From positions 262,735-326,734 of the forward strand of contig CANOTO010000001.1 in NCBI GenBank assembly GCA_947570215.1: a stretch of DNA of 64,000 bases. Reading direction: 5' to 3'. Source of the DNA: an uncultured Clostridia bacterium. Lineage in GTDB: Bacteria; Bacillota; Clostridia; Christensenellales; CAG-314. Both the position numbers and the translations under genes were made by a program. The number at the start of each line of letters is the position of its first letter. Position 1 is the first letter of the stretch. A model generated the notes under the pieces. That model ran no database searches and had not been told where the DNA came from. It saw only the letters and a program-made list of their open reading frames with translations. Positions 1 through 7,620 of this stretch are shown here, piece by piece.

Positions 1-52
1 GCGGTTGACACGACGCTTTTTGTGGGGGCACTTTGGAAAAGTTGACACGAAT

Positions 53-101
53 GGCAAAAAAGACGGCAACGAGATAGCTTACCGCTATCCATTGCCGTCT
101 T
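53..101 (-). terminator. Intrinsic terminator-like hairpin at the distal end of the RHS/orphan array
   Basis: Arms AAGACGGCAA (60-69) and TTGCCGTCTT (92-101). The A-run at 55-60 on + gives a U-run when read on the - strand, downstream of the last immunity ORF (177-410). Confidence 0.5.
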
Positions 102-134
102 TATTGTCCGCGCTTTCGGGAACTTTTCTTAGCT
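92..134. repeat. 43-bp direct repeat, copy A (distal boundary of the RHS island)
   Basis: TTGCCGTCTTTATTGTCCGCGCTTTCGGGAACTTTTCTTAGCT matches 7662-7704 with 3 mismatches, aligned by eye. Confidence 0.8.
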
Positions 135-176
135 TTATTTATTTTTCTATTCGGTTTATAAACTTTAATGTGATTG

Positions 177-410
177 CTACATTTCTCCGCGTCTTTCAAG
201 CAATACAAGTAATTTACTAATAATACTGTCCGCTTCTCTTCCCAAATCGTCAATATCACCTGTAACAACATCAAAGCCTATTAAATTACCTAACAAATCG
301 GTTAATTTTAGGATTTCCGTCTTAGATAATTTTGCTATTGAATCGCTTGATTTATAGTTACACTTACTAACTTTATTTATTAGTTCTATTTCCCTTTCTG
401 ATAATATCAT
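177..410 (-). CDS. Small protein; candidate immunity protein for orphan toxin tip 2
   Basis: 77-aa ORF whose ATG directly abuts the stop of the orphan tip ORF (411). It is AT-rich like the other cassette genes. No family recognised. Confidence 0.55.
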   Translation of the reverse strand: MILSEREIELINKVSKCNYKSSDSIAKLSKTEILKLTDLLGNLIGFDVVTGDIDDLGREADSIISKLLVLLERRGEM

Positions 411-878
411 TTAATATCTCCAAAATTTGGACCTTCTTGCCCAAGTTGAAACCACTTTGCCCTGTTGATTAAGTATAGTTACAGAATTCATACCACTAAA
501 TCTATACGTGTTTCTTGATACATCATATATAACTTCCGTGGGATTTCTCACTGCATCCAATATTTCTTGGGGGCTTACTCCGTGTCCATCTCTAAAAATT
601 GCTTGTTCTAATCCATGCTGAGTATATCCCGTAATATTATCCGGAGTTTGGTTTGCAACAGTACTTGAGTTTTGAGTCACTTCGTTAGTTAATTCCGCCG
701 TATTAACAGCTCTGCTTCTGCACAGGTACTTGATTGCGTTTATACTTGACGATATAAATAGAAATGCCGACGTGAAAAGGAATGCGTCTAATACCGCGTT
801 GCCTAACCCTTCCCACGTTAACGCTTGCTGCGTTAGTAATGATTCAAGCAGGTATCCGTCTATTCCGAAACCTATTCC
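411..878 (-). CDS. Orphan RHS C-terminal cassette 2 (pre-toxin helix + ~85-aa toxin tip); no ATG/RBS at its 5' end
   Basis: The frame is open from the TAG at 879-881 down to the stop at 411-413. It translates to GIGFGIDGYLLESLLTQQALTWEGLGNAVLDAFLFTSAFLFISSSINAIKYLCRSRAVNTAELTNEVTQNSS... This parallels RHS residues ...SLTMDGAVNAAMDAFLLSSIFVFITAGVNAIKYLCRSKPVTTAELANEVTQN. The ORF-track call 411..680 starts at an internal GTG. Confidence 0.7.
   Translation of the reverse strand, partial: GIGFGIDGYLLESLLTQQALTWEGLGNAVLDAFLFTSAFLFISSSINAIKYLCRSRAVNTAELTNEVTQNSSTVANQTPDNITGYTQHGLEQAIFRDGHGVSPQEILDAVRNPTEVIYDVSRNTYRFSGMNSVTILNQQGKVVSTWARRSKFWRY
766..839. repeat. 74-bp near-identical segment shared by the two orphan cassettes (copy in orphan 2)
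   Basis: GCCGACGTGAAAAGGAATGCGTCTAATACCGCGTTGCCTAACCCTTCCCACGTTAACGCTTGCTGCGT[T/C]AGTAA matches 2133-2206 with 1 mismatch. It encodes ...LLTQQALTWEGLGNAVLDAFLFTSA on the - strand. Confidence 0.85.
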
Positions 879-904
879 CTATACCAATTCCACTTACACT
901 AAAG

Positions 905-1285
905 TTAGCCAAATTGTTCTACTATTGTTTGCTCTTTCGTTTGTTCGTCGTAGAAATAATAATACGTGTGACAATCATCGCCCTTGACTTTTTCTTGATG
1001 ACTGAATACTAACGGTTTACCGTTTACAATTGGCCACTCCGGTGATTGCACCCAACGCGGATATGTTTTGTCATACTTGAACAATGCTTTAACTTTTTCT
1101 TTGCCAAACTTTATTTGTTGCGTTTTAGAAAGATTATTCGGTATTTCTTCTATAACTTTCTGAAAAACGTCATCGTTATTTATATCCAACCAAGTAACTG
1201 TAAACACTTCATCACGTTGTTTTATCTCACACAATTTTTTGTCTGCTTCTTTTTGTGAAATATAATAAATTTTATTTTCGTGCAT
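905..1285 (-). CDS. Hypothetical 126-aa protein in the orphan array; possible stray immunity gene
   Basis: ATG preceded by GGAGATTATCATT. The C-terminal ...YPRWVQSPEWPIVNGKPLVFSHQ... faintly recalls YwqG/DUF1963-type proteins seen in toxin loci. Function is inferred only from position. Confidence 0.5.
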   Translation of the reverse strand: MHENKIYYISQKEADKKLCEIKQRDEVFTVTWLDINNDDVFQKVIEEIPNNLSKTQQIKFGKEKVKALFKYDKTYPRWVQSPEWPIVNGKPLVFSHQEKVKGDDCHTYYYFYDEQTKEQTIVEQFG

Positions 1286-1409
1286 AATGATAATCTCCGA
1301 TTTATCTTATTATCTTATAAAAAGTTGCGTAATGGTCTCTCGTTAAATATACAGCATATCGATCACTTACAACAAATCTCGTACCGTCTCTCCCAATTCC
1401 TTCTATTGT

Positions 1410-1715
1410 TTATAAATTTACTTCCCAGTATGCATAGACTCCCATAGATATTTCCGTTGATGCAAATTTATATCCGCATTCTGTTTCGTATATATTTAAC
1501 AAATGCAACTGATGATAATGTCCATCATACCCAAAGCATATTTCATTTAGAAGTTTCGAATTCTTAGTTTTATATCCATTTATACGAAAATCATCATTAT
1601 GACTTATTCCTATAAATTTCGTATTATAGGCGACAAAATGTCTATCAAAGTTTTTGATTATTTGCGTTGCACGTTCTAAAAGCATTATTTCCCTTTTCGA
1701 CTCATACTCCACCAT
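1410..1715 (-). CDS. Candidate immunity protein for the TNT-like orphan tip
   Basis: 101-aa ORF that starts 15 bp after the stop of the TNT-like cassette. An in-frame TAA is followed by 35 further sense codons (1305-1409). Confidence 0.55.
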   Translation of the reverse strand: MVEYESKREIMLLERATQIIKNFDRHFVAYNTKFIGISHNDDFRINGYKTKNSKLLNEICFGYDGHYHQLHLLNIYETECGYKFASTEISMGVYAYWEVNL

Positions 1716-1729
1716 GATTTATACTCCTT

Positions 1730-2266
1730 CTAATAAATTAAATATCCTGCAATTTTTAACATATCAATCGGTTGCGGTAGCATATATTGTATTCCGCCAC
1801 CAACACCATTCCAAGGTGCCCACGCTGCAACCGTTGACTGAACAACGCCTTCAATCGGCTTAAGTACACGTATCTTTATATAAACACCGTCGTTCCAAGG
1901 TGGTAAAGACAGTTGCGATGCACTTGCTCCCGATTGAGTTATATAGTTACTTTGGCTACTTATTGTTCCATAACGCCCGTATGTTCCTGGCTGTAATGTT
2001 ATTGTCTGTTCTGTACCAACAACAGCTCCGTTATTCGGCGGATATATCTGTTGATCAAGAACAACAGTACTAACAGATTTGCTTCTGCACAAGTACTTTA
2101 TTGCGTTAATGCCGGAAGATATGAAAAGGAACGCCGACGTGAAAAGGAATGCGTCTAATACCGCGTTGCCTAACCCTTCCCACGTTAACGCTTGCTGCGT
2201 CAGTAACGAGCTTAAAAGGTGTCCTGCTACTCTGTTACTTATACCATCGCCAGTTTTATTGCATTC
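1730..2266 (-). CDS. Orphan RHS C-terminal cassette 1: pre-toxin helix + TNT-like (NAD+ glycohydrolase family) toxin tip
   Basis: The frame is open from the TAA at 2267-2269. It translates to ECNKTGDGISNRVAGHLLSSLLTQQALTWEGLGNAVLDAFLFTSAFLFISSGINAIKYLCRSKSVSTVV... The tip carries GTYGRYG...LSLPPW...YIKIRVLKPIEG...WAPWNGVGGGIQYMLP, which matches the TNT-domain pattern (RyG, sLP, VlKP, PWfgqpGGGxQY). No RBS/ATG at the 5' end. Confidence 0.7.
   Translation of the reverse strand, partial: ECNKTGDGISNRVAGHLLSSLLTQQALTWEGLGNAVLDAFLFTSAFLFISSGINAIKYLCRSKSVSTVVLDQQIYPPNNGAVVGTEQTITLQPGTYGRYGTISSQSNYITQSGASASQLSLPPWNDGVYIKIRVLKPIEGVVQSTVAAWAPWNGVGGGIQYMLPQPIDMLKIAGYLIY
2133..2206. repeat. 74-bp near-identical segment shared by the two orphan cassettes (copy in orphan 1)
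   Basis: See 766-839. Confidence 0.85.
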
Positions 2267-2303
2267 TTAGATGATTTTTATCAAATTCTTTGTTTTATAT
2301 TTG

Positions 2304-2663
2304 TTAAAGCTGACAATCTATTCTAAGACAAATTATTTCAAGAAAATCTCCATTTCTTACTTCTCTTGGAAAAGCTTCGTCTATTTCAATATTAAACCCG
2401 AAAACTTTGACGATCTTTTGATCTATGTCTACTACTCTACCTATAATTTTGTACTCATAATAGCCGTCTAATTTAGATATCAGCATATTTTTAGTGTCAA
2501 TTTTTTTGATGTTCCTGATGAAACAGGATATCAATCTAAAATTGGAACAACCAATATTTATTTTCGAAGTTGCCATACATAACAACTGATGTTCTCCGTC
2601 TGTTACTTTCACATCATACTCAAATCCAGCACCATCATAATCCGTAATCTCAGCTACATACAT
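2304..2663 (-). CDS. Candidate cognate immunity protein of the resident RHS toxin tip
   Basis: 119-aa ORF that starts 16 bp downstream of the RHS stop on the same strand. It is AT-rich. No family recognised. Confidence 0.6.
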   Translation of the reverse strand: MYVAEITDYDGAGFEYDVKVTDGEHQLLCMATSKINIGCSNFRLISCFIRNIKKIDTKNMLISKLDGYYEYKIIGRVVDIDQKIVKVFGFNIEIDEAFPREVRNGDFLEIICLRIDCQL

Positions 2664-2678
2664 ATAAATTATACTCTC

Positions 2679-5600
2679 CTATAATACTCTTGGAAAATAC
2701 GTCGTAATATACAATCCGTTTCTTTCTAAGCCAACGAAATGATACAGCTTTTTGCCTTTTGAAGTTACCCTAAAAAACATTGCATATCCGTTCATTTCAG
2801 ACACATACGTACCATTATTTATTACATAATTCGCGCCCTGCAGATATTCTTGCGAGTTACTATACATTCCCTTAAATTGACTTCCGTGTTTTGCAAAATG
2901 TTCTTCTAATTTGACTTGTGACTCAAACTCTAAATACTTGTTTTGCGTTACTTCGTTAGCCAATTCCGCCGTAGTAACAGGTTTGCTTCTGCAAAGATAC
3001 TTTATTGCGTTTACACCTGCAGTAATGAACACAAATATCGACGACAATAAGAATGCATCCATTGCTGCGTTTACTGCGCCGTCCATTGTTAATGACCGAC
3101 GATTTAATAACGATGTTACCGCCCACATTGCCAAGCCAAAGCCAACGCCTAACACCATTTCCGTTAATATTGCCACGACGGAACCATGCGACATGATTGT
3201 TATGCCGACCGCCAACATTAACACCAAAGTTCCCCAGACCAGTTTTGATTCGGCAGGCAGCTTATTAAACCTACGCACCCATTGAGCTATCTTCATCTCT
3301 ACCTTGGTTAGCCAAGTGTATTTTGGTGTATAAGTCGTATCTGCCGCCAGCTCACAAGTGGTATATATATTGTGCGGATTACCCGCCAATTCAAGTATAT
3401 TGTCGCACAATAAGCCTGTTCTGTCAAGCCTGCGCGCTGTGAAGACGTCGCTGAAAATGCTTTCGATAGGGGCTGCATCTATATACGATACCGTAGCAGG
3501 ATCGTAAAAACTGCCGTTGGCGTAATACAAACCCGTATCCGTATCGTAGTAAAAGCCTTTCCATCTAAACGGATTGATATTACCAATCGACGTTGGGTCG
3601 GTATCTATCTCGTTATCTGCGTTGTAAACGGTGCAATTACCGAAAATATCGTATTCGTAACGGGCGACTATACGGTCTGTAAGCGAATCTATAAGCATAA
3701 TTACATTGCCTTGACTGTCTAAGACATACTCGTAATCGACATCGTTGTAACTTACAAAATTTAAGCCTGTTAAATCATACATAAACCTTAATGCATAACT
3801 ATTGCCGCCGTAAATATCTACGCCGAGAATTTTGTTACCGTCCAAAAGGAATTTCGCGGTTGATCCGTTATTTATTTTCTTGCATAAAACGCCGTTTTGA
3901 TTGTAGGAATAATGTATGCTTCCGGCTTGAATCAGCTGTCCGCCGCGGGCGTATTTATATTCCGTTACAAGCAAATCGTTGTGGCCATTCCGCTTTTCTA
4001 TTCTGTTGCCGTAGGTGTCGTACTTGTATGTATAATCGCCTACGCGGGACATTTGTCCCAAGGAATTGTAATTAAAATCAATATCTTTTCCTTTGATAGT
4101 TGCGTGCGATATTCGTCCGTCGTCATTGTATCTTACATGCTGAGTACTAACGACTCCGTTTTTGTTAACTTCAACGTCTGTTAGCCGTTCCAAGCTGTCA
4201 TAGTTAAACGAAGATTTGACAGTTTGGTTCAACTCCCATTCCTGTTCTTCATGATTTTTCTGTCCTACCCACAATTTTGACGACTTCAATTTGCCGTCGT
4301 TATAGTAATCTAACTCGTCAACTGTTTTAACCAACTGCTTGTATGCGGGCGAAAAAGAACGGTCTCCATATTCGAACAGGACACACTGCAAACGGCTCTT
4401 TCCTGCCAAATCAACATAATCATAATTCGTTGTCGTGTGATGGCAGTATTTCGCCGATAAACGTCCGAATTCATCATAAGAATATTTAAGCGGATTATAA
4501 TGCGACCAAAGGTCATCTGTTACTTCACTATATTTACGGTGTAATTTCGTTTCTACTACTCGCGGAGACAAGATTTTTTCGGAGTCGTCTGTTATCTCGG
4601 TCATATATTCAATTCCAAGACCGAAACTATACTTCGTTACGTTGTCGGATATCTTCTGGACTTTGACATTTTCCGTTCCGTCGCCGTTCTTTTCTTCCCA
4701 GCGCATAAGTTCGCCGTCGTCGTTATAATAGTAGTCGGTAATTGTGCCGTTATCGTTATCGGTATGTGTTGTAAGAAGCGCTGTAAAAACGCTTTCATTC
4801 GGGCTGTCATATACGTACGTATTTCGGACTTCGCCGCCCTGCGCATTCTTGTGAGTCACGGCATTTATCTTGCCGTATTTGGTAAGCTCGGTCGTTACGC
4901 TGTCCTTTACCGCGTTATCTTCGTAAAATTCGCTGCGGTGTTTTTGGCTTATATAGCTGCCGCGGTCGTTTTCAACACTGTCACGCTGAATAAGTTTTTC
5001 CGCGCCTGCTTTATCGAACTGCGTATACTCTACCGTATTGTGTGCAAGGTTGTACTTTACGCCGTACTTGGCGAGCCCGTCCGAGACGGTACGTATACGC
5101 CCCTGCTCGTAGGTTGCGTCTCGGCGAGATAATTGTTTGCCGTTGTTATATTCGGTAACGGCAAGCGTATTATTACGGAAAACGCCGTAACTGTTAGTAA
5201 CGTTGTGCGAAGTAGACTGGAAACCGCCGTTTACAACCTTGCCTTCCGTAACCGTGCCAACTTGGTCGTATTCGGTATAGTCAACCGATTGCCCCGTTAC
5301 ACCGACGTGAGATCGCAGCAATCGTCCTTCGTCGTCGTACCGATAATACGTTACCGAACCGACCGTTCCGCGCGAACCTACGAGTTCGGCTTTTGTCAAG
5401 TCGCCGTAGTCGTTGTATTCGTAATTTTTACTTACACCGTATTCGTCCGTTTCTTTGAGCGTTTTTCCATAGTAATCTATTTCGACAGTGGCGGATGAGC
5501 TGACGCCTTCGCGGCAACCTACGGTTTCTACCGTAATACTTCGCGGTCCGTACTTATACGTTGTGGTTATTTCCGTTTTACCGTCCGGCATATACATCTT

Positions 5601-7535
5601 CACGGAAGGACTGAACGACGGTTCGTACTTAACGCCGTTGTCATCAAACGCTATTTGTTCGACGTTAGGTATCCGTTTCGTACCATTATTGCAAACCAAG
5701 TCGAACAAGCGATGATAGCTTATAGAATATGTTTTTGTAACACGATTTCTTACAGAAGCAAGTACGTCGCTTTCCGTAAAGTAAATTTGCTCGTCTAATA
5801 CGCATTCTTTTGTATCACAGGATGCGTCTTCCCGAACTGTCGTCAACGTAAACTTGCTCAATTGCGACATCGGGGCAGCTAATATGTAATATAATTCCGT
5901 ATAGGGCGCGGGAGCGAAACCTATTTCGCTAAACTCGTACGCGCCCGTATAAGGCTGATTGTTGTTTAGTAATTGGACTTTCAAATAGGACAGCGTGTCC
6001 GTTTTAGTGTCGTCGCGTTTCTTGAGCGGAGCGTAAATAGACAAGGACACCCTTTGCCAAGCGTTTGCCGCCTTGCCGTCTAAAAGCGTTACGCTCGTCT
6101 GCTCGCTTGCTGTTGAAAACTTATAGACAATCTTTGCCTGCATATACTTTGACTTTGCCGATGCGGGAAGCTTGAGCCAGAAAGAATAGTCGAACGTGCG
6201 CAAGCCTTGTTCTTTATCGCTGCGGGTTACTTCGAATTTTGCATTATCGAGTACAGTATAAATTCCGTTAACGGTAAAGGCTGTTTCTTGGTTGATTCTC
6301 GCGGTAGATACTCCGCCCATATCAATACCCGTAGTCTTTGCTCCTTGTTTTTCTAACGTATACAGTTTATTAGATATCTTTTCGAATGAGCTTACAACGC
6401 AGGCGTCGCGGTTGATGAAGTACGCAAGCTTTATACCGTCGTGATTAGTTACGTGCGTTTCGGAAGATACAAGCGTATCTCCGCCGTTGTAATTGTAGGT
6501 GTACGAATTGCTCGACTTGGTTATAAATTCCGCCTGGGCAGGCGCGCCGCAGTACAGCCCGATACCGCAAGCAAGATAGTTGCCGTCGGCGTCCGTCATG
6601 CCCATTCCTACCGAGTGGCTCTTGATAACGCCCTGCTCTACCTTAGATATCTTGCCGCCGTCATACGTAAACCTGTACGCCGACTTGGTTTCAAGGTCGG
6701 TTGCCTGCGTTAACAGCCCGTTGGCGTACTCAAAGCCGAGCGACGGCGTTACAAGGCACTGCGCACCCTTGCGGTTGTACGCAACCCTGTCTGCTTGAAT
6801 AAGACTGCCGTTTGCATCGTATCGGTAGTTTACGCTTGAAAGTATTTTACCGGCGTACGCCGTTGCGGATGATAGGCGACCAACTTCGTCATAACCGAAC
6901 TCGATATATGCTCCGATATGATAGATTGTATGCGAAACTTGCTTTCTCATACGGTAATCGTACGCTTTTACTAAGCGGTTTCGCTCGTCGTATTCGTACG
7001 ACTTCATCATAGTATTTTTATGACACGACACTGTTTTGTTCACTCTGCCCTGTCTGTTGAAATATATACGGTTGCCTGCGCCGTCTTCTATGTAAATGCT
7101 ATCAAAAGTACTATCTCCGCTTACGTTAAGAGTAACTTTGGCATTACGTTCGTCGTAATAACGCCCGTCGGCATACTTTACAAAACGGTGTACTTCGCCC
7201 GATTCGTCCATATACAATACGGTAGAACCGTCCGTTTGCAGCAAATACTGCGCCACGTTAAGCTTCCAGCCGCCTGCAAGCTCGGGGAATTGCTTGACAA
7301 ACGCCGAAAAATGTTGACTTAGGTAGACGTGCCCTACGTTAACGGCAAAGTTGCCGTAGCCTACGCTTAAATCGTCAAACGAATAACGCAGCCTGCCCGT
7401 AGCAAGGTTGACGGCAGGGTTGTCGCCCATATCCGCTTGCGAATAGTCGGTAGTCGCCATCTTGCTTGTTCCGCCACCGAAAAAATCTTCGTACGAACCG
7501 TGTACGGCTTGTAATTTGTTTAATTCTTTATACAT
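2679..7535 (-). CDS. RHS/YD-repeat polymorphic toxin (1618 aa) with a C-terminal swappable toxin tip
   Basis: Many YD repeats are visible (YEYDERNRL, YRYDANGSL, YEYNDYGDL, YRYDDEGRL, YSYDEFGRL, YKYDTYGNR). The RHS-associated core ends ...YEYDIFGN...NPFRWKGFYYDTDTGLYYANGSFYDPATVSYID. Hydrophobic helices follow, then the tip with EEHFAKHGSQFKG...TTYFPRVL. RBS AAGGAGAAATT precedes the ATG. Confidence 0.9.
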   Translation of the reverse strand: MYKELNKLQAVHGSYEDFFGGGTSKMATTDYSQADMGDNPAVNLATGRLRYSFDDLSVGYGNFAVNVGHVYLSQHFSAFVKQFPELAGGWKLNVAQYLLQTDGSTVLYMDESGEVHRFVKYADGRYYDERNAKVTLNVSGDSTFDSIYIEDGAGNRIYFNRQGRVNKTVSCHKNTMMKSYEYDERNRLVKAYDYRMRKQVSHTIYHIGAYIEFGYDEVGRLSSATAYAGKILSSVNYRYDANGSLIQADRVAYNRKGAQCLVTPSLGFEYANGLLTQATDLETKSAYRFTYDGGKISKVEQGVIKSHSVGMGMTDADGNYLACGIGLYCGAPAQAEFITKSSNSYTYNYNGGDTLVSSETHVTNHDGIKLAYFINRDACVVSSFEKISNKLYTLEKQGAKTTGIDMGGVSTARINQETAFTVNGIYTVLDNAKFEVTRSDKEQGLRTFDYSFWLKLPASAKSKYMQAKIVYKFSTASEQTSVTLLDGKAANAWQRVSLSIYAPLKKRDDTKTDTLSYLKVQLLNNNQPYTGAYEFSEIGFAPAPYTELYYILAAPMSQLSKFTLTTVREDASCDTKECVLDEQIYFTESDVLASVRNRVTKTYSISYHRLFDLVCNNGTKRIPNVEQIAFDDNGVKYEPSFSPSVKMYMPDGKTEITTTYKYGPRSITVETVGCREGVSSSATVEIDYYGKTLKETDEYGVSKNYEYNDYGDLTKAELVGSRGTVGSVTYYRYDDEGRLLRSHVGVTGQSVDYTEYDQVGTVTEGKVVNGGFQSTSHNVTNSYGVFRNNTLAVTEYNNGKQLSRRDATYEQGRIRTVSDGLAKYGVKYNLAHNTVEYTQFDKAGAEKLIQRDSVENDRGSYISQKHRSEFYEDNAVKDSVTTELTKYGKINAVTHKNAQGGEVRNTYVYDSPNESVFTALLTTHTDNDNGTITDYYYNDDGELMRWEEKNGDGTENVKVQKISDNVTKYSFGLGIEYMTEITDDSEKILSPRVVETKLHRKYSEVTDDLWSHYNPLKYSYDEFGRLSAKYCHHTTTNYDYVDLAGKSRLQCVLFEYGDRSFSPAYKQLVKTVDELDYYNDGKLKSSKLWVGQKNHEEQEWELNQTVKSSFNYDSLERLTDVEVNKNGVVSTQHVRYNDDGRISHATIKGKDIDFNYNSLGQMSRVGDYTYKYDTYGNRIEKRNGHNDLLVTEYKYARGGQLIQAGSIHYSYNQNGVLCKKINNGSTAKFLLDGNKILGVDIYGGNSYALRFMYDLTGLNFVSYNDVDYEYVLDSQGNVIMLIDSLTDRIVARYEYDIFGNCTVYNADNEIDTDPTSIGNINPFRWKGFYYDTDTGLYYANGSFYDPATVSYIDAAPIESIFSDVFTARRLDRTGLLCDNILELAGNPHNIYTTCELAADTTYTPKYTWLTKVEMKIAQWVRRFNKLPAESKLVWGTLVLMLAVGITIMSHGSVVAILTEMVLGVGFGLAMWAVTSLLNRRSLTMDGAVNAAMDAFLLSSIFVFITAGVNAIKYLCRSKPVTTAELANEVTQNKYLEFESQVKLEEHFAKHGSQFKGMYSNSQEYLQGANYVINNGTYVSEMNGYAMFFRVTSKGKKLYHFVGLERNGLYITTYFPRVL

Positions 7536-7572
7536 AATTTCTCCTTGTTTTTTTGTTACGTTCCGTCAGCCG

Positions 7573-7613
7573 AAATTAAAACGTTTTAGCTGCGCGCCGC
7601 TAAACGCGTTTTT
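7573..7613 (-). terminator. Terminator-like hairpin T2 between the Com-like gene and the RHS start
   Basis: Arms AACGTTTTAGC (7580-7590) and GCTAAACGCGTT (7599-7610). On the - strand the hairpin is followed by UUUUAAUUU. Confidence 0.5.
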
Positions 7614-7620
7614 ACCCAAG

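Follow-up and report, generated by a model that had tools for sequence, protein, structure and literature searches.

Probable archive of displaced toxin tips downstream of a polymorphic RHS gene in an uncultured gut Clostridia lineage

The window considered here, a stretch of 64,000 nucleotides from an uncultured Clostridia bacterium (contig CANOTO010000001.1 of GenBank assembly GCA_947570215.1), carries close to its first position a locus whose genes and gene remnants all lie on the minus strand. In the order in which they follow one another, a resident polymorphic toxin gene of the RHS/YD-repeat type (2679-7535) precedes a candidate immunity gene, imm0 (2304-2663), a start-less frame, o1 (1730-2266), a second candidate immunity gene, imm1 (1410-1715), the relic of a barnase-like tip (1302-1406), a chimeric open reading frame (ORF) named orfX (905-1285), another start-less frame, o2 (411-878), and a third candidate immunity gene, imm2 (177-410). 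A first-pass annotation had described o1 and o2 as promoterless orphan cassettes, each composed of a toxin tip and a small immunity ORF; the 34-codon tip remnant at 1302-1406 and the chimeric immunity ORF at 905-1285 were absent from that account. The comparison of this locus with the same chromosomal site in sister strains makes it quite probable that the stretch downstream of the RHS gene is an archive of this polymorphic toxin locus, in which the orphans are displaced tips accompanied by their antidote candidates.

The resident gene encodes a protein of 1618 residues and opens with an ATG preceded by an AAGGAG Shine-Dalgarno (SD) sequence. YD repeats and the end of the core, ...NPFRWKGFYYDTDTGLYYANGSFYDP, are visible in its translation, and the TEN_YD-shell family PF25023 is precomputed on proteins identical or near-identical to it. 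When scanned with hmmscan, the protein lies below the curated cut-offs, with 15.1 bits for the RHS_repeat family PF05593 (cut-off 22) and 21.1 bits for TIGR03696 (cut-off 32.5), and its match to DUF6531 is also sub-threshold. The term RHS is therefore used here in a broad sense, for a divergent YD-shell protein that scores below the family cut-offs. The core end is followed by a hydrophobic, multi-helix transmembrane pre-toxin module (3015..3293), which exists as two alleles, designated hR in the resident gene and hO elsewhere. The DNA of hR is 40-60% identical to that of the hO alleles in the comparison contigs L044, L045 and L046, and the sequences that flank the module are conserved on both sides. 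Next come the junction, VNAIKYLCRS (2985-3014), and a linker of 15 residues, KPVTTAELANEVTQN (2940-2984). Junction and linker together (2940..3014) constitute the last conserved stretch ahead of the tip, and the similarity between strains changes partner there. The tip itself, tip0 (86 residues, 2682..2939), has no Pfam family, and a search of PDB sequences with the whole RHS protein returned nothing usable. Among the strains and cluster members compared, the hR module was seen only with tips of the tip0 type.

The two orphan frames, of 178 residues for o1 and 155 residues for o2 when read from stop to stop, are built on the same plan. In o1, a handle of the hO type (2111-2245) and a junction (2081-2110) lead to a TNT-family tip (1733-2080). 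The same succession is found in o2, with its hO handle (744-878) and junction (714-743), which are followed by a linker (669-713) and a tip named tip2 (414-668); the homology of this orphan to main genes runs on to about position 893, through an in-frame TAG. Each orphan retains about 55 codons of the last pre-toxin helices, reads ...LLTQQALTWEGLGNAVLDAFLFTSAFLFISS(G/S)INAIKYLCRS and then diverges, so that the shared junction ahead of novel tips, as first described, is found in both frames. The additional 15-codon linker beyond the junction is common to o2 and the resident gene. The absence of an ATG and of a ribosome-binding site at the 5' ends of these frames, noted at first pass, is borne out as well: the first 161 codons of o1 and the first 129 codons of o2 are free of ATG, the earliest alternative starts are a TTG at 2092 (o1) and a GTG at 680 (o2), and neither of these has an SD match. 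The RHS gene, imm0, imm1, orfX and imm2 all carry an ATG with a GGAG-type SD sequence located 5-12 nt upstream. Promoter-like hexamers occur in the array at the chance rate (13 found, 11.8 expected), and no terminator was found on the minus strand within the array. The simplest reading would be a single transcript on which only the SD-bearing ORFs are translated.

The two orphan handles share a stretch of 74 nt (766-839 and 2133-2206) with one mismatch, as recomputed here with the same result as in the first account; its longest exact run is 68 nt, and the chance of such a match is about 1e-40 for a given pair. The homologous stretch of the resident gene is indeed diverged from both, with a DNA identity of 61-63% over 179 nt that rises to 81-87% in the junction, and the longest exact matches between resident and orphan are limited to 10-14 nt. 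The proposal that the orphans derive from another rhs allele is supported by members of the same 90% protein cluster, full-length RHS proteins which carry the handle of the orphan type. The handle of P0167/L045 has 98% amino-acid identity to the orphan-type handle reference, and the handle of P0184 and P0190 is identical to that of o1 over its last 45 or so residues, including ...FISSGINAIKYLCRS.

The small ORF announced behind each orphan was found in both cases, at 1410-1715 and at 177-410. The first of these, imm1 (101 residues, AAGGAG SD), is the candidate for immunity against the TNT tip; L044 carries it with 100% identity, and ORFs with similar ends, as judged by eye, come after TNT tips in the genomes G014, G024 and G025. 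The second, imm2 (77 residues, GGAG SD), is the candidate for tip2; its start codon abuts the tip2 stop, and it is 99-100% conserved beside tip2 in L044, L049 and L051. For the resident tip, the candidate is imm0 (119 residues, also with an SD), which follows tip0-type tips in the host, in contig C10 of the host, in G027 and in L047. The immunity candidates co-occur with the same tip across strains and species.

Two remnants complete the array. Beyond the imm1 stop, the sense codons of 1302-1406 correspond to the final 34 codons and the stop of a barnase-like (PF00545) tip that is intact and resident in a sister strain (P0167/L045), and 33 of these 34 residues are those found at the C-terminus of the full-length RHS protein P0167. 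The chimeric immunity relic orfX combines the first 30 residues of Barstar136 (1196-1285) with the last 96 residues of an immunity-like family of 222 residues (908-1195), to which this C-terminal part is 64% identical and which is found after RHS tips in G050. At the position of orfX, the near-identical strains L049 and L051 contain an intact gene for a Barstar-like protein of 132 residues. The archive would thus be eroding by deletions, as suggested by the barnase relic and the chimeric orfX. A further case may be provided by P0174 (from two Logan contigs, seen as protein only), an RHS protein whose sequence leaves tip0 after the first third, at ...KGMY, and continues in frame with residues 20-77 of imm2. 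In window coordinates, ~2870 is joined to ~350; the loss of about 2.4 kb at a TATA microhomology would have removed the rest of tip0 and the whole array.

The comparison between strains is based on metagenome contigs representing one chromosomal site, which were found through protein searches and on which the parts of the locus were mapped by tblastn; full-length carriers of the tips were sought among the members of the 90% protein cluster and with an all-against-all HMMER search. A search for related loci with o1 alone gave no match in genome or metagenome contigs. The site is flanked by ABC-transporter genes and a gene for a zinc-ribbon protein of 56 residues on one side, and by a collagen-like gene and an M60 peptidase gene on the other. 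These flanks are 99.2-99.6% identical to those of the host in L049, L051 and L045 (99.5% for L045). With h22 and h55 giving the number of handle codons retained, the host order is RHS[hR]-tip0, imm0, h55-TNT, imm1, barnase relic, orfX, h55-tip2 and imm2. The contigs L049, L050 and L051 have the same order as far as the relic, then Barstar132, h22-tip2 and imm2. In L045, an RHS[hO] gene with the full barnase-like tip is followed by Barstar136, p147 and a tip2 with a long handle. The most extended array, that of L044, reads RHS[hO]-tipA, immA, Barstar132, h22-tip0, imm0, h55-TNT, imm1, barnase relic, Barstar136, p147, long-handle tip2 and imm2. At the other extreme, L047, with flanks 95% identical, has an RHS[hR] gene with a variant of tip0 and no orphans. 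Additional members of the same 90% cluster carry the hO module with an HNH-like tip (P0184 and P0190) or with tipA (P0179). These sequences point to at least five resident tips mounted on one RHS body within one species.

The same parts can be found in different states. Tip0, resident in the host and in other strains, is in L044 a start-less orphan with a handle of 22 codons, and the tip reduced to a relic in the host is the resident one in L045. Both situations corroborate the first identification of the orphan frames as toxin tips. The handle in front of tip2 varies in length from 22 codons (L049) to about 55 (host) and at least 130 (L044, an open frame of 232 residues). The TNT and tip2 frames of the orphans are intact, with neither stop nor frameshift, in all four or five strains where they were seen. 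The protein P0004 has a TNT tip attached to at least 700 residues of RHS body; no full-length carrier of tip2 was found in any of the sources searched.

Alignment of the host locus with those of its relatives locates the places where sequences were exchanged. With respect to the alleles in which tip0 is resident, L044 contains an insert of 1.37 kb with a copy of the junction at either end: window 7691-2952 corresponds to L044 1-4761, window 3019-1195 to L044 6128-7952, and the overlap of 68 nt is the junction/linker. The Barstar132-h22 segment of L049 tracks the tip0 cassette of L044 up to the junction/linker and the tip2 cassette of L044 thereafter. The earlier view that tip switching would have to use the short junction is therefore correct in so far as partners do switch within this junction/linker of about 75 nt, but it is too narrow, since other breakpoints border the membrane module on its upstream side or fall in the RHS core some 1 kb upstream, so that they are spread over more than 1 kb. 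Between the host and L046, tip0 is in common and the membrane module differs throughout, the similarity ending after ...TKVEM and returning at AAACGCAAT, where the junction starts. Between the host and L045, the identity of the RHS gene is 89-95% over the initial 1.8 kb, reaches 99-100% between nt 1800 and about nt 3600, and then falls stepwise to about 50% over the last 1.2 kb (47-93%). The reverse pattern is obtained with L047, with an identity of 70-84% in the first 2.7 kb and then of 94-99% to about nt 4500. Long orphans in contig C10 of the host and in G050 start within the core, a few codons apart, at a TFxYDxFGNR motif.

The orphan handles are patchworks of one another. Between the host and L044, synonymous divergence (pS) amounts to 0.36-0.43 in the orphan handles and to 0.01-0.04 in the tips attached to them, so that handles and tips have different histories. 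The 68-nt identity between o1 and o2 in the host is missing between the same two cassettes of L044, and is best read as a gene-conversion tract. All this is what ordinary homologous recombination is expected to produce wherever conserved sequence permits it, in line with the displacement model put forward by Jackson et al. (2009, PMC2935791).

The conservation of the handle can be followed beyond the species. Throughout the genus, the module closes with a conserved (V/I)(N/S)A(I/V)K(Y)..R motif, and the tips located beyond it differ completely, including TNT, Hint-domain toxins, HNH-like domains and others. The handle is first of all a conserved protein module, and it is because of this conservation that it can be used for recombination. 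The synonymous conservation of the junction codons (GCA ATA AAG TAY) between species was considered as the mark of a site acting at the DNA level and was rejected, given that codon preference was uncontrolled and that the peptide itself is conserved. The carriers of the module in the same genus are metagenome-assembled genomes (MAGs) labelled uncultured Christensenellaceae, Clostridia or Oscillospiraceae, from the gut of mouse, rabbit, chicken and yak. The orphans of two of the genomes, G023 and G050 (L036 8009-9286 and L037 8001-9788), have Hint (intein-like) domains inserted between the junction and the toxin. The G023 orphan shares about 170 nearly identical handle residues with its own main gene, and this genome looks switch-competent.

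The nature of the tips can be predicted in one case. The tip of o1 matches the TNT family PF14021 with E=5.6e-10 and 40 bits against a gathering cut-off of 27 (frame residues 90-176) and is, by this profile match, a predicted TNT-family NADase; the search of PDB sequences with o1 gave no usable match. No Pfam or NCBIfam family was found for tip0, tip2, imm0, imm1, imm2 or orfX. AlphaFold models of tip0 and tip2, with predicted local distance difference test (pLDDT) values of 77 and 74 respectively, each contain two helices and a four-stranded sheet. No neighbour reaches E<=0.001 in a fold search of these two models against the PDB, and the top ones, which are small RNase toxins and not significant, are HigB2 for tip0 (E=0.024, template-modelling (TM) score 0.38) and the CdiA-CT of Escherichia coli NC101 (E 0.14-0.18, TM score 0.45-0.52). 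An RNase function of tip0 or tip2, such as that of the BECR/RelE-like toxins, is only a guess drawn from these models.

The history of the locus may be pictured as follows. All strains of the species would share one RHS body at one chromosomal site, with a 3' end made of exchangeable modules, namely the last part of the core, the transmembrane pre-toxin module, the junction/linker, the tip and the immunity gene. New 3' ends would come in by ordinary homologous recombination within the conserved modules, and the previous tip would be pushed downstream, keeping a stub of conserved sequence and losing its start codon along with the delivery part. Later deletions would erode the archive. The immunity ORFs are presumably still translated, since they all possess an ATG and an SD of their own and are not preceded by a terminator, and would protect the cell against neighbours firing the corresponding tips; the orphan tips themselves would be silent. 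The comparison of strains establishes, at the level of sequence, the origin of the orphans, the common allele from which their handles derive, the reassortment of tips, membrane modules and core ends, and the position of the junction/linker as last joint. Recombination between main gene and orphan could re-activate a tip in principle. In the present strain this is unlikely, and switching should be rare, because the resident module is a diverged allele that has exact matches of only 12-14 nt with the orphans; strains with an hO main gene share more homology with their own orphans. A functional significance of this mismatch, with hO, common to the orphans and many main genes, keeping the archive competent for switching, and hR, through exact runs lowered to 12-14 nt, insulating the resident toxin in a locked state, is conceivable and at present improbable. 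Tip switching would then be a polymorphic trait at the level of the strain, set by the sequence of a membrane module on the cargo side.

Several points weigh against the explanation by displacement. No full-length RHS protein of this species was found with the TNT tip or with tip2. The immunity function of the small ORFs is deduced only from position and co-occurrence, and both their expression and the silence of the tips are read from the DNA sequence. The ratio of nonsynonymous to synonymous divergence (pN/pS) in the orphan tips is 0.3-0.4, a value obtained from 5-8 changes with which selection and recent origin are not separable. The order and the direction of the events, insertion or deletion, are not fixable from four or five strains. 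Finally, the comparison contigs are metagenome assemblies, in which repeats can mislead assemblers; yet independent assemblies agree. A purely artefactual origin of the array, by the collapse or misjoining of repeats in the MAG, is hardly credible: the host genome is fragmented (17 contigs, 93% completeness, probably a MAG) and the repeats of the locus measure 68-180 nt, but no fewer than three further assemblies, made independently (L049, L050 and L051), have the same order of parts, and the distal and central blocks are found in L044 as well.

Among the alternatives, the one that deserves most attention, and that we regard as possible while doubting it, holds that the immunity genes are the only unit under selection. 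The array would then be an immunity island directed against the toxins of neighbours, and the tip fragments would be inert debris that is never reused. This would account for the fact that all the immunity ORFs keep an ATG and an SD when the tips have none, for the 12-14 nt to which exact matches between resident and orphan are limited, for the decay by deletion seen in the barnase relic, in the chimeric orfX and in the fusion of tip0 to imm2 in P0174, and for the absence of TNT and tip2 from the RHS proteins found in this species. It agrees less well with the intact TNT and tip2 frames of all four or five strains, with the destruction in the host of one of the immunity genes, Barstar136, or with the occurrence of tip0 as an orphan in one strain and as the resident tip of others, which implies that the two states interconvert within the species. 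The tips may be either a usable reserve or debris beside useful immunity genes. It is distinctly less probable that the orphans are expressed alone, from internal TTG or GTG codons, as small cytoplasmic toxins forming modules of the toxin-antitoxin kind with the immunity genes; such a role is reported for a Salmonella rhs orphan (PMC7043789). Gene callers do propose ORFs of this type (P0001, 120 residues from the TTG at 2092; P0152 and P0160 from within the handle), and the orphan frames are intact in several strains. However, none of the candidate orphan starts is preceded by an SD, a feature present in all five neighbouring genes, promoter-like sites are at the chance rate, and the in-frame stub of handle upstream is explained by displacement and not by the start of a gene.

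The last alternative, a site-specific recombinase moving the tips at a fixed site, as in an integron or in a swap driven by a mobile element, is very improbable. One argument for it comes from contig C10 of the host (G000:C10:1-13700; L004 and L064), where a second, truncated RHS 3' end was observed. This fragment is an open frame of 486 residues that starts near TFAYDHFGNR and contains a glycine-rich membrane module and a tip0-like tip, followed by an imm0-like gene and by the bracket repeat described below; it abuts a truncated tyrosine integrase, beside which lies an integrative element with an intact integrase and genes for PcfJ-like and MutS-domain-I proteins. The same PcfJ and MutS-I genes are present downstream of the RHS locus in G040. 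The proximity of the fragment to integrase genes could suggest a mobile origin, as could two coincidences: the handles of o1 and o2 both begin at one point of the main gene (L044 4549/4550), and the long orphans of C10 and G050 begin within a few codons of each other at TFxYDxFGNR. The integrase copy touching the RHS fragment is the truncated one. The intact copy ends beside what resembles a tRNA 3' end, the usual attachment site; no whole tRNA was found there. Among the four orthologues closest to this intact copy (55-72% identical), none has an RHS fragment in the adjacent DNA, with the restriction that three of the four are at contig ends with little flank. At the RHS locus, moreover, no recombinase gene is present in any of the six syntenic strains, and no fixed short site marks the edges of the cassettes: the 5' edges for the same tip vary with the strain (22, about 55 or at least 130 codons), the breakpoints are dispersed over more than 1 kb, and all cassettes are direct repeats without inverted sites. 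No support was thus found in these sequences for a site-specific mechanism at this locus.

Displacement of C-terminal ends is a well-known phenomenon, described for the arrays of orphan rhs-CT/rhsI modules in Enterobacteriaceae (Jackson et al. 2009, PMC2935791; Poole et al. 2011, PMC3150448). As in these arrays, start-less fragments lie in the same direction behind an intact rhs gene; each has a stub of conserved sequence, a distinct AT-rich tip and a small gene for immunity, which is a candidate gene at the present locus; the orphan tips of one strain are the main tips of another, the lengths of the stubs vary, and exchange takes place within the same rhs clade. The present locus differs by its host, which belongs to an uncultured gut Clostridia lineage of the Gram-positive type with a genome of 1.5 Mb and no type VI secretion system context. 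Its stubs do not come from the YD core but from the cargo side, where the transmembrane pre-toxin module lies beyond the ...YDP end of the core; its last joint is a junction of 10 codons with an optional linker of 15 codons instead of the DPxGL boundary; and its resident gene carries an allele of the stub module different from that of its own orphans. A close parallel is also provided by the rhs orphan of Salmonella Typhimurium LT2, which is activated when it recombines with the main gene (Koskiniemi et al. 2014, PMC3967940). Here as there, an apparently silent orphan lacks initiation and export signals, and a shared segment could fuse main gene and orphan with deletion of the DNA between them. 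Recombination in LT2 was observed experimentally within shared homology, whereas exchange is known here from the comparison between strains, and the resident gene is no more than 61-63% identical (81-87% within the junction), its exact matches extending over 12-14 nt.

CdiA-CT/CdiI modules are demarcated by the VENN pre-toxin motif. The orphan modules of this type (Poole et al. 2011, PMC3150448) resemble the present ones in that a short conserved peptide motif marks the limit between conserved and variable parts and is kept by the orphans; the delivery protein, the motif (INAIKYLCRS here) and the phylum are different. Interbacterial NADase tips of the PF14021 family, with cognate immunity, are known on Rhs carriers, an example being the Rhs NADase effectors of Serratia (PMC10539506). 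The o1 tip, which scores above the PF14021 gathering cut-off, would be of the same kind, with the difference that it is here a presumably silent orphan. The kind of system is well known, and the concept of tip displacement is left unchanged; what is new is the host lineage, the joint on the cargo side and the clean series of strains. Rhs tip displacement and its archives of orphans, worked out in Enterobacteriaceae, are thereby extended to uncultured gut Clostridia with small genomes (submitter label Christensenellaceae), and the last joint for recombination is located behind a membrane module that moves together with the cargo. It also offers an unusually clean natural series, with flanks about 99.5% identical, at least five warheads on one RHS body, and the same cassette resident in one strain and archived in another. 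This may be of use in studies of competition between gut strains, and to annotators, as gene callers turn the stubs into false small genes.

The surroundings of the array deserve a short description. The host genome (G000) measures 1.53 Mb. The GC content is 0.28-0.44 across the tip array (150-2700), versus 0.45-0.55 across the RHS core (4650-6900), the tips being AT-rich with 29-40% GC, and an Rfam scan of positions 1-9000 detected no RNA family. The locus is enclosed by a bracket repeat of 43 nt, with a distal copy at 92-134, followed by a terminator-like hairpin at about 45-90, and a proximal copy at 7662-7704 that is 93% identical to it, both on the minus strand. Exactly three copies of this repeat of 43-50 nt are present in the genome, the third one at G000:C10:12613-12662, directly after the cassette of the C10 RHS fragment. 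Each copy precedes a collagen-like gene or a hairpin, and contig L044 both starts and finishes in the repeat, which looks like a locus boundary or a terminator element. The collagen-like gene downstream of the array extends beyond the window (window -1145..78, minus strand, contig C1). Collagen-repeat proteins with the N-terminal motif M(E)FK(D/N)RKATNPGRV adjoin the RHS locus in the host, L036, L038, L040, L043, L047 and L049, and beyond their gene lie very large proteins of the surface type, including, in sister strains, the M60 peptidase. Elsewhere in the host genome (G000:C3:97000-107000) there is another group of RHS-like genes, distantly related, with frames of 1936, 646 and 405 residues.

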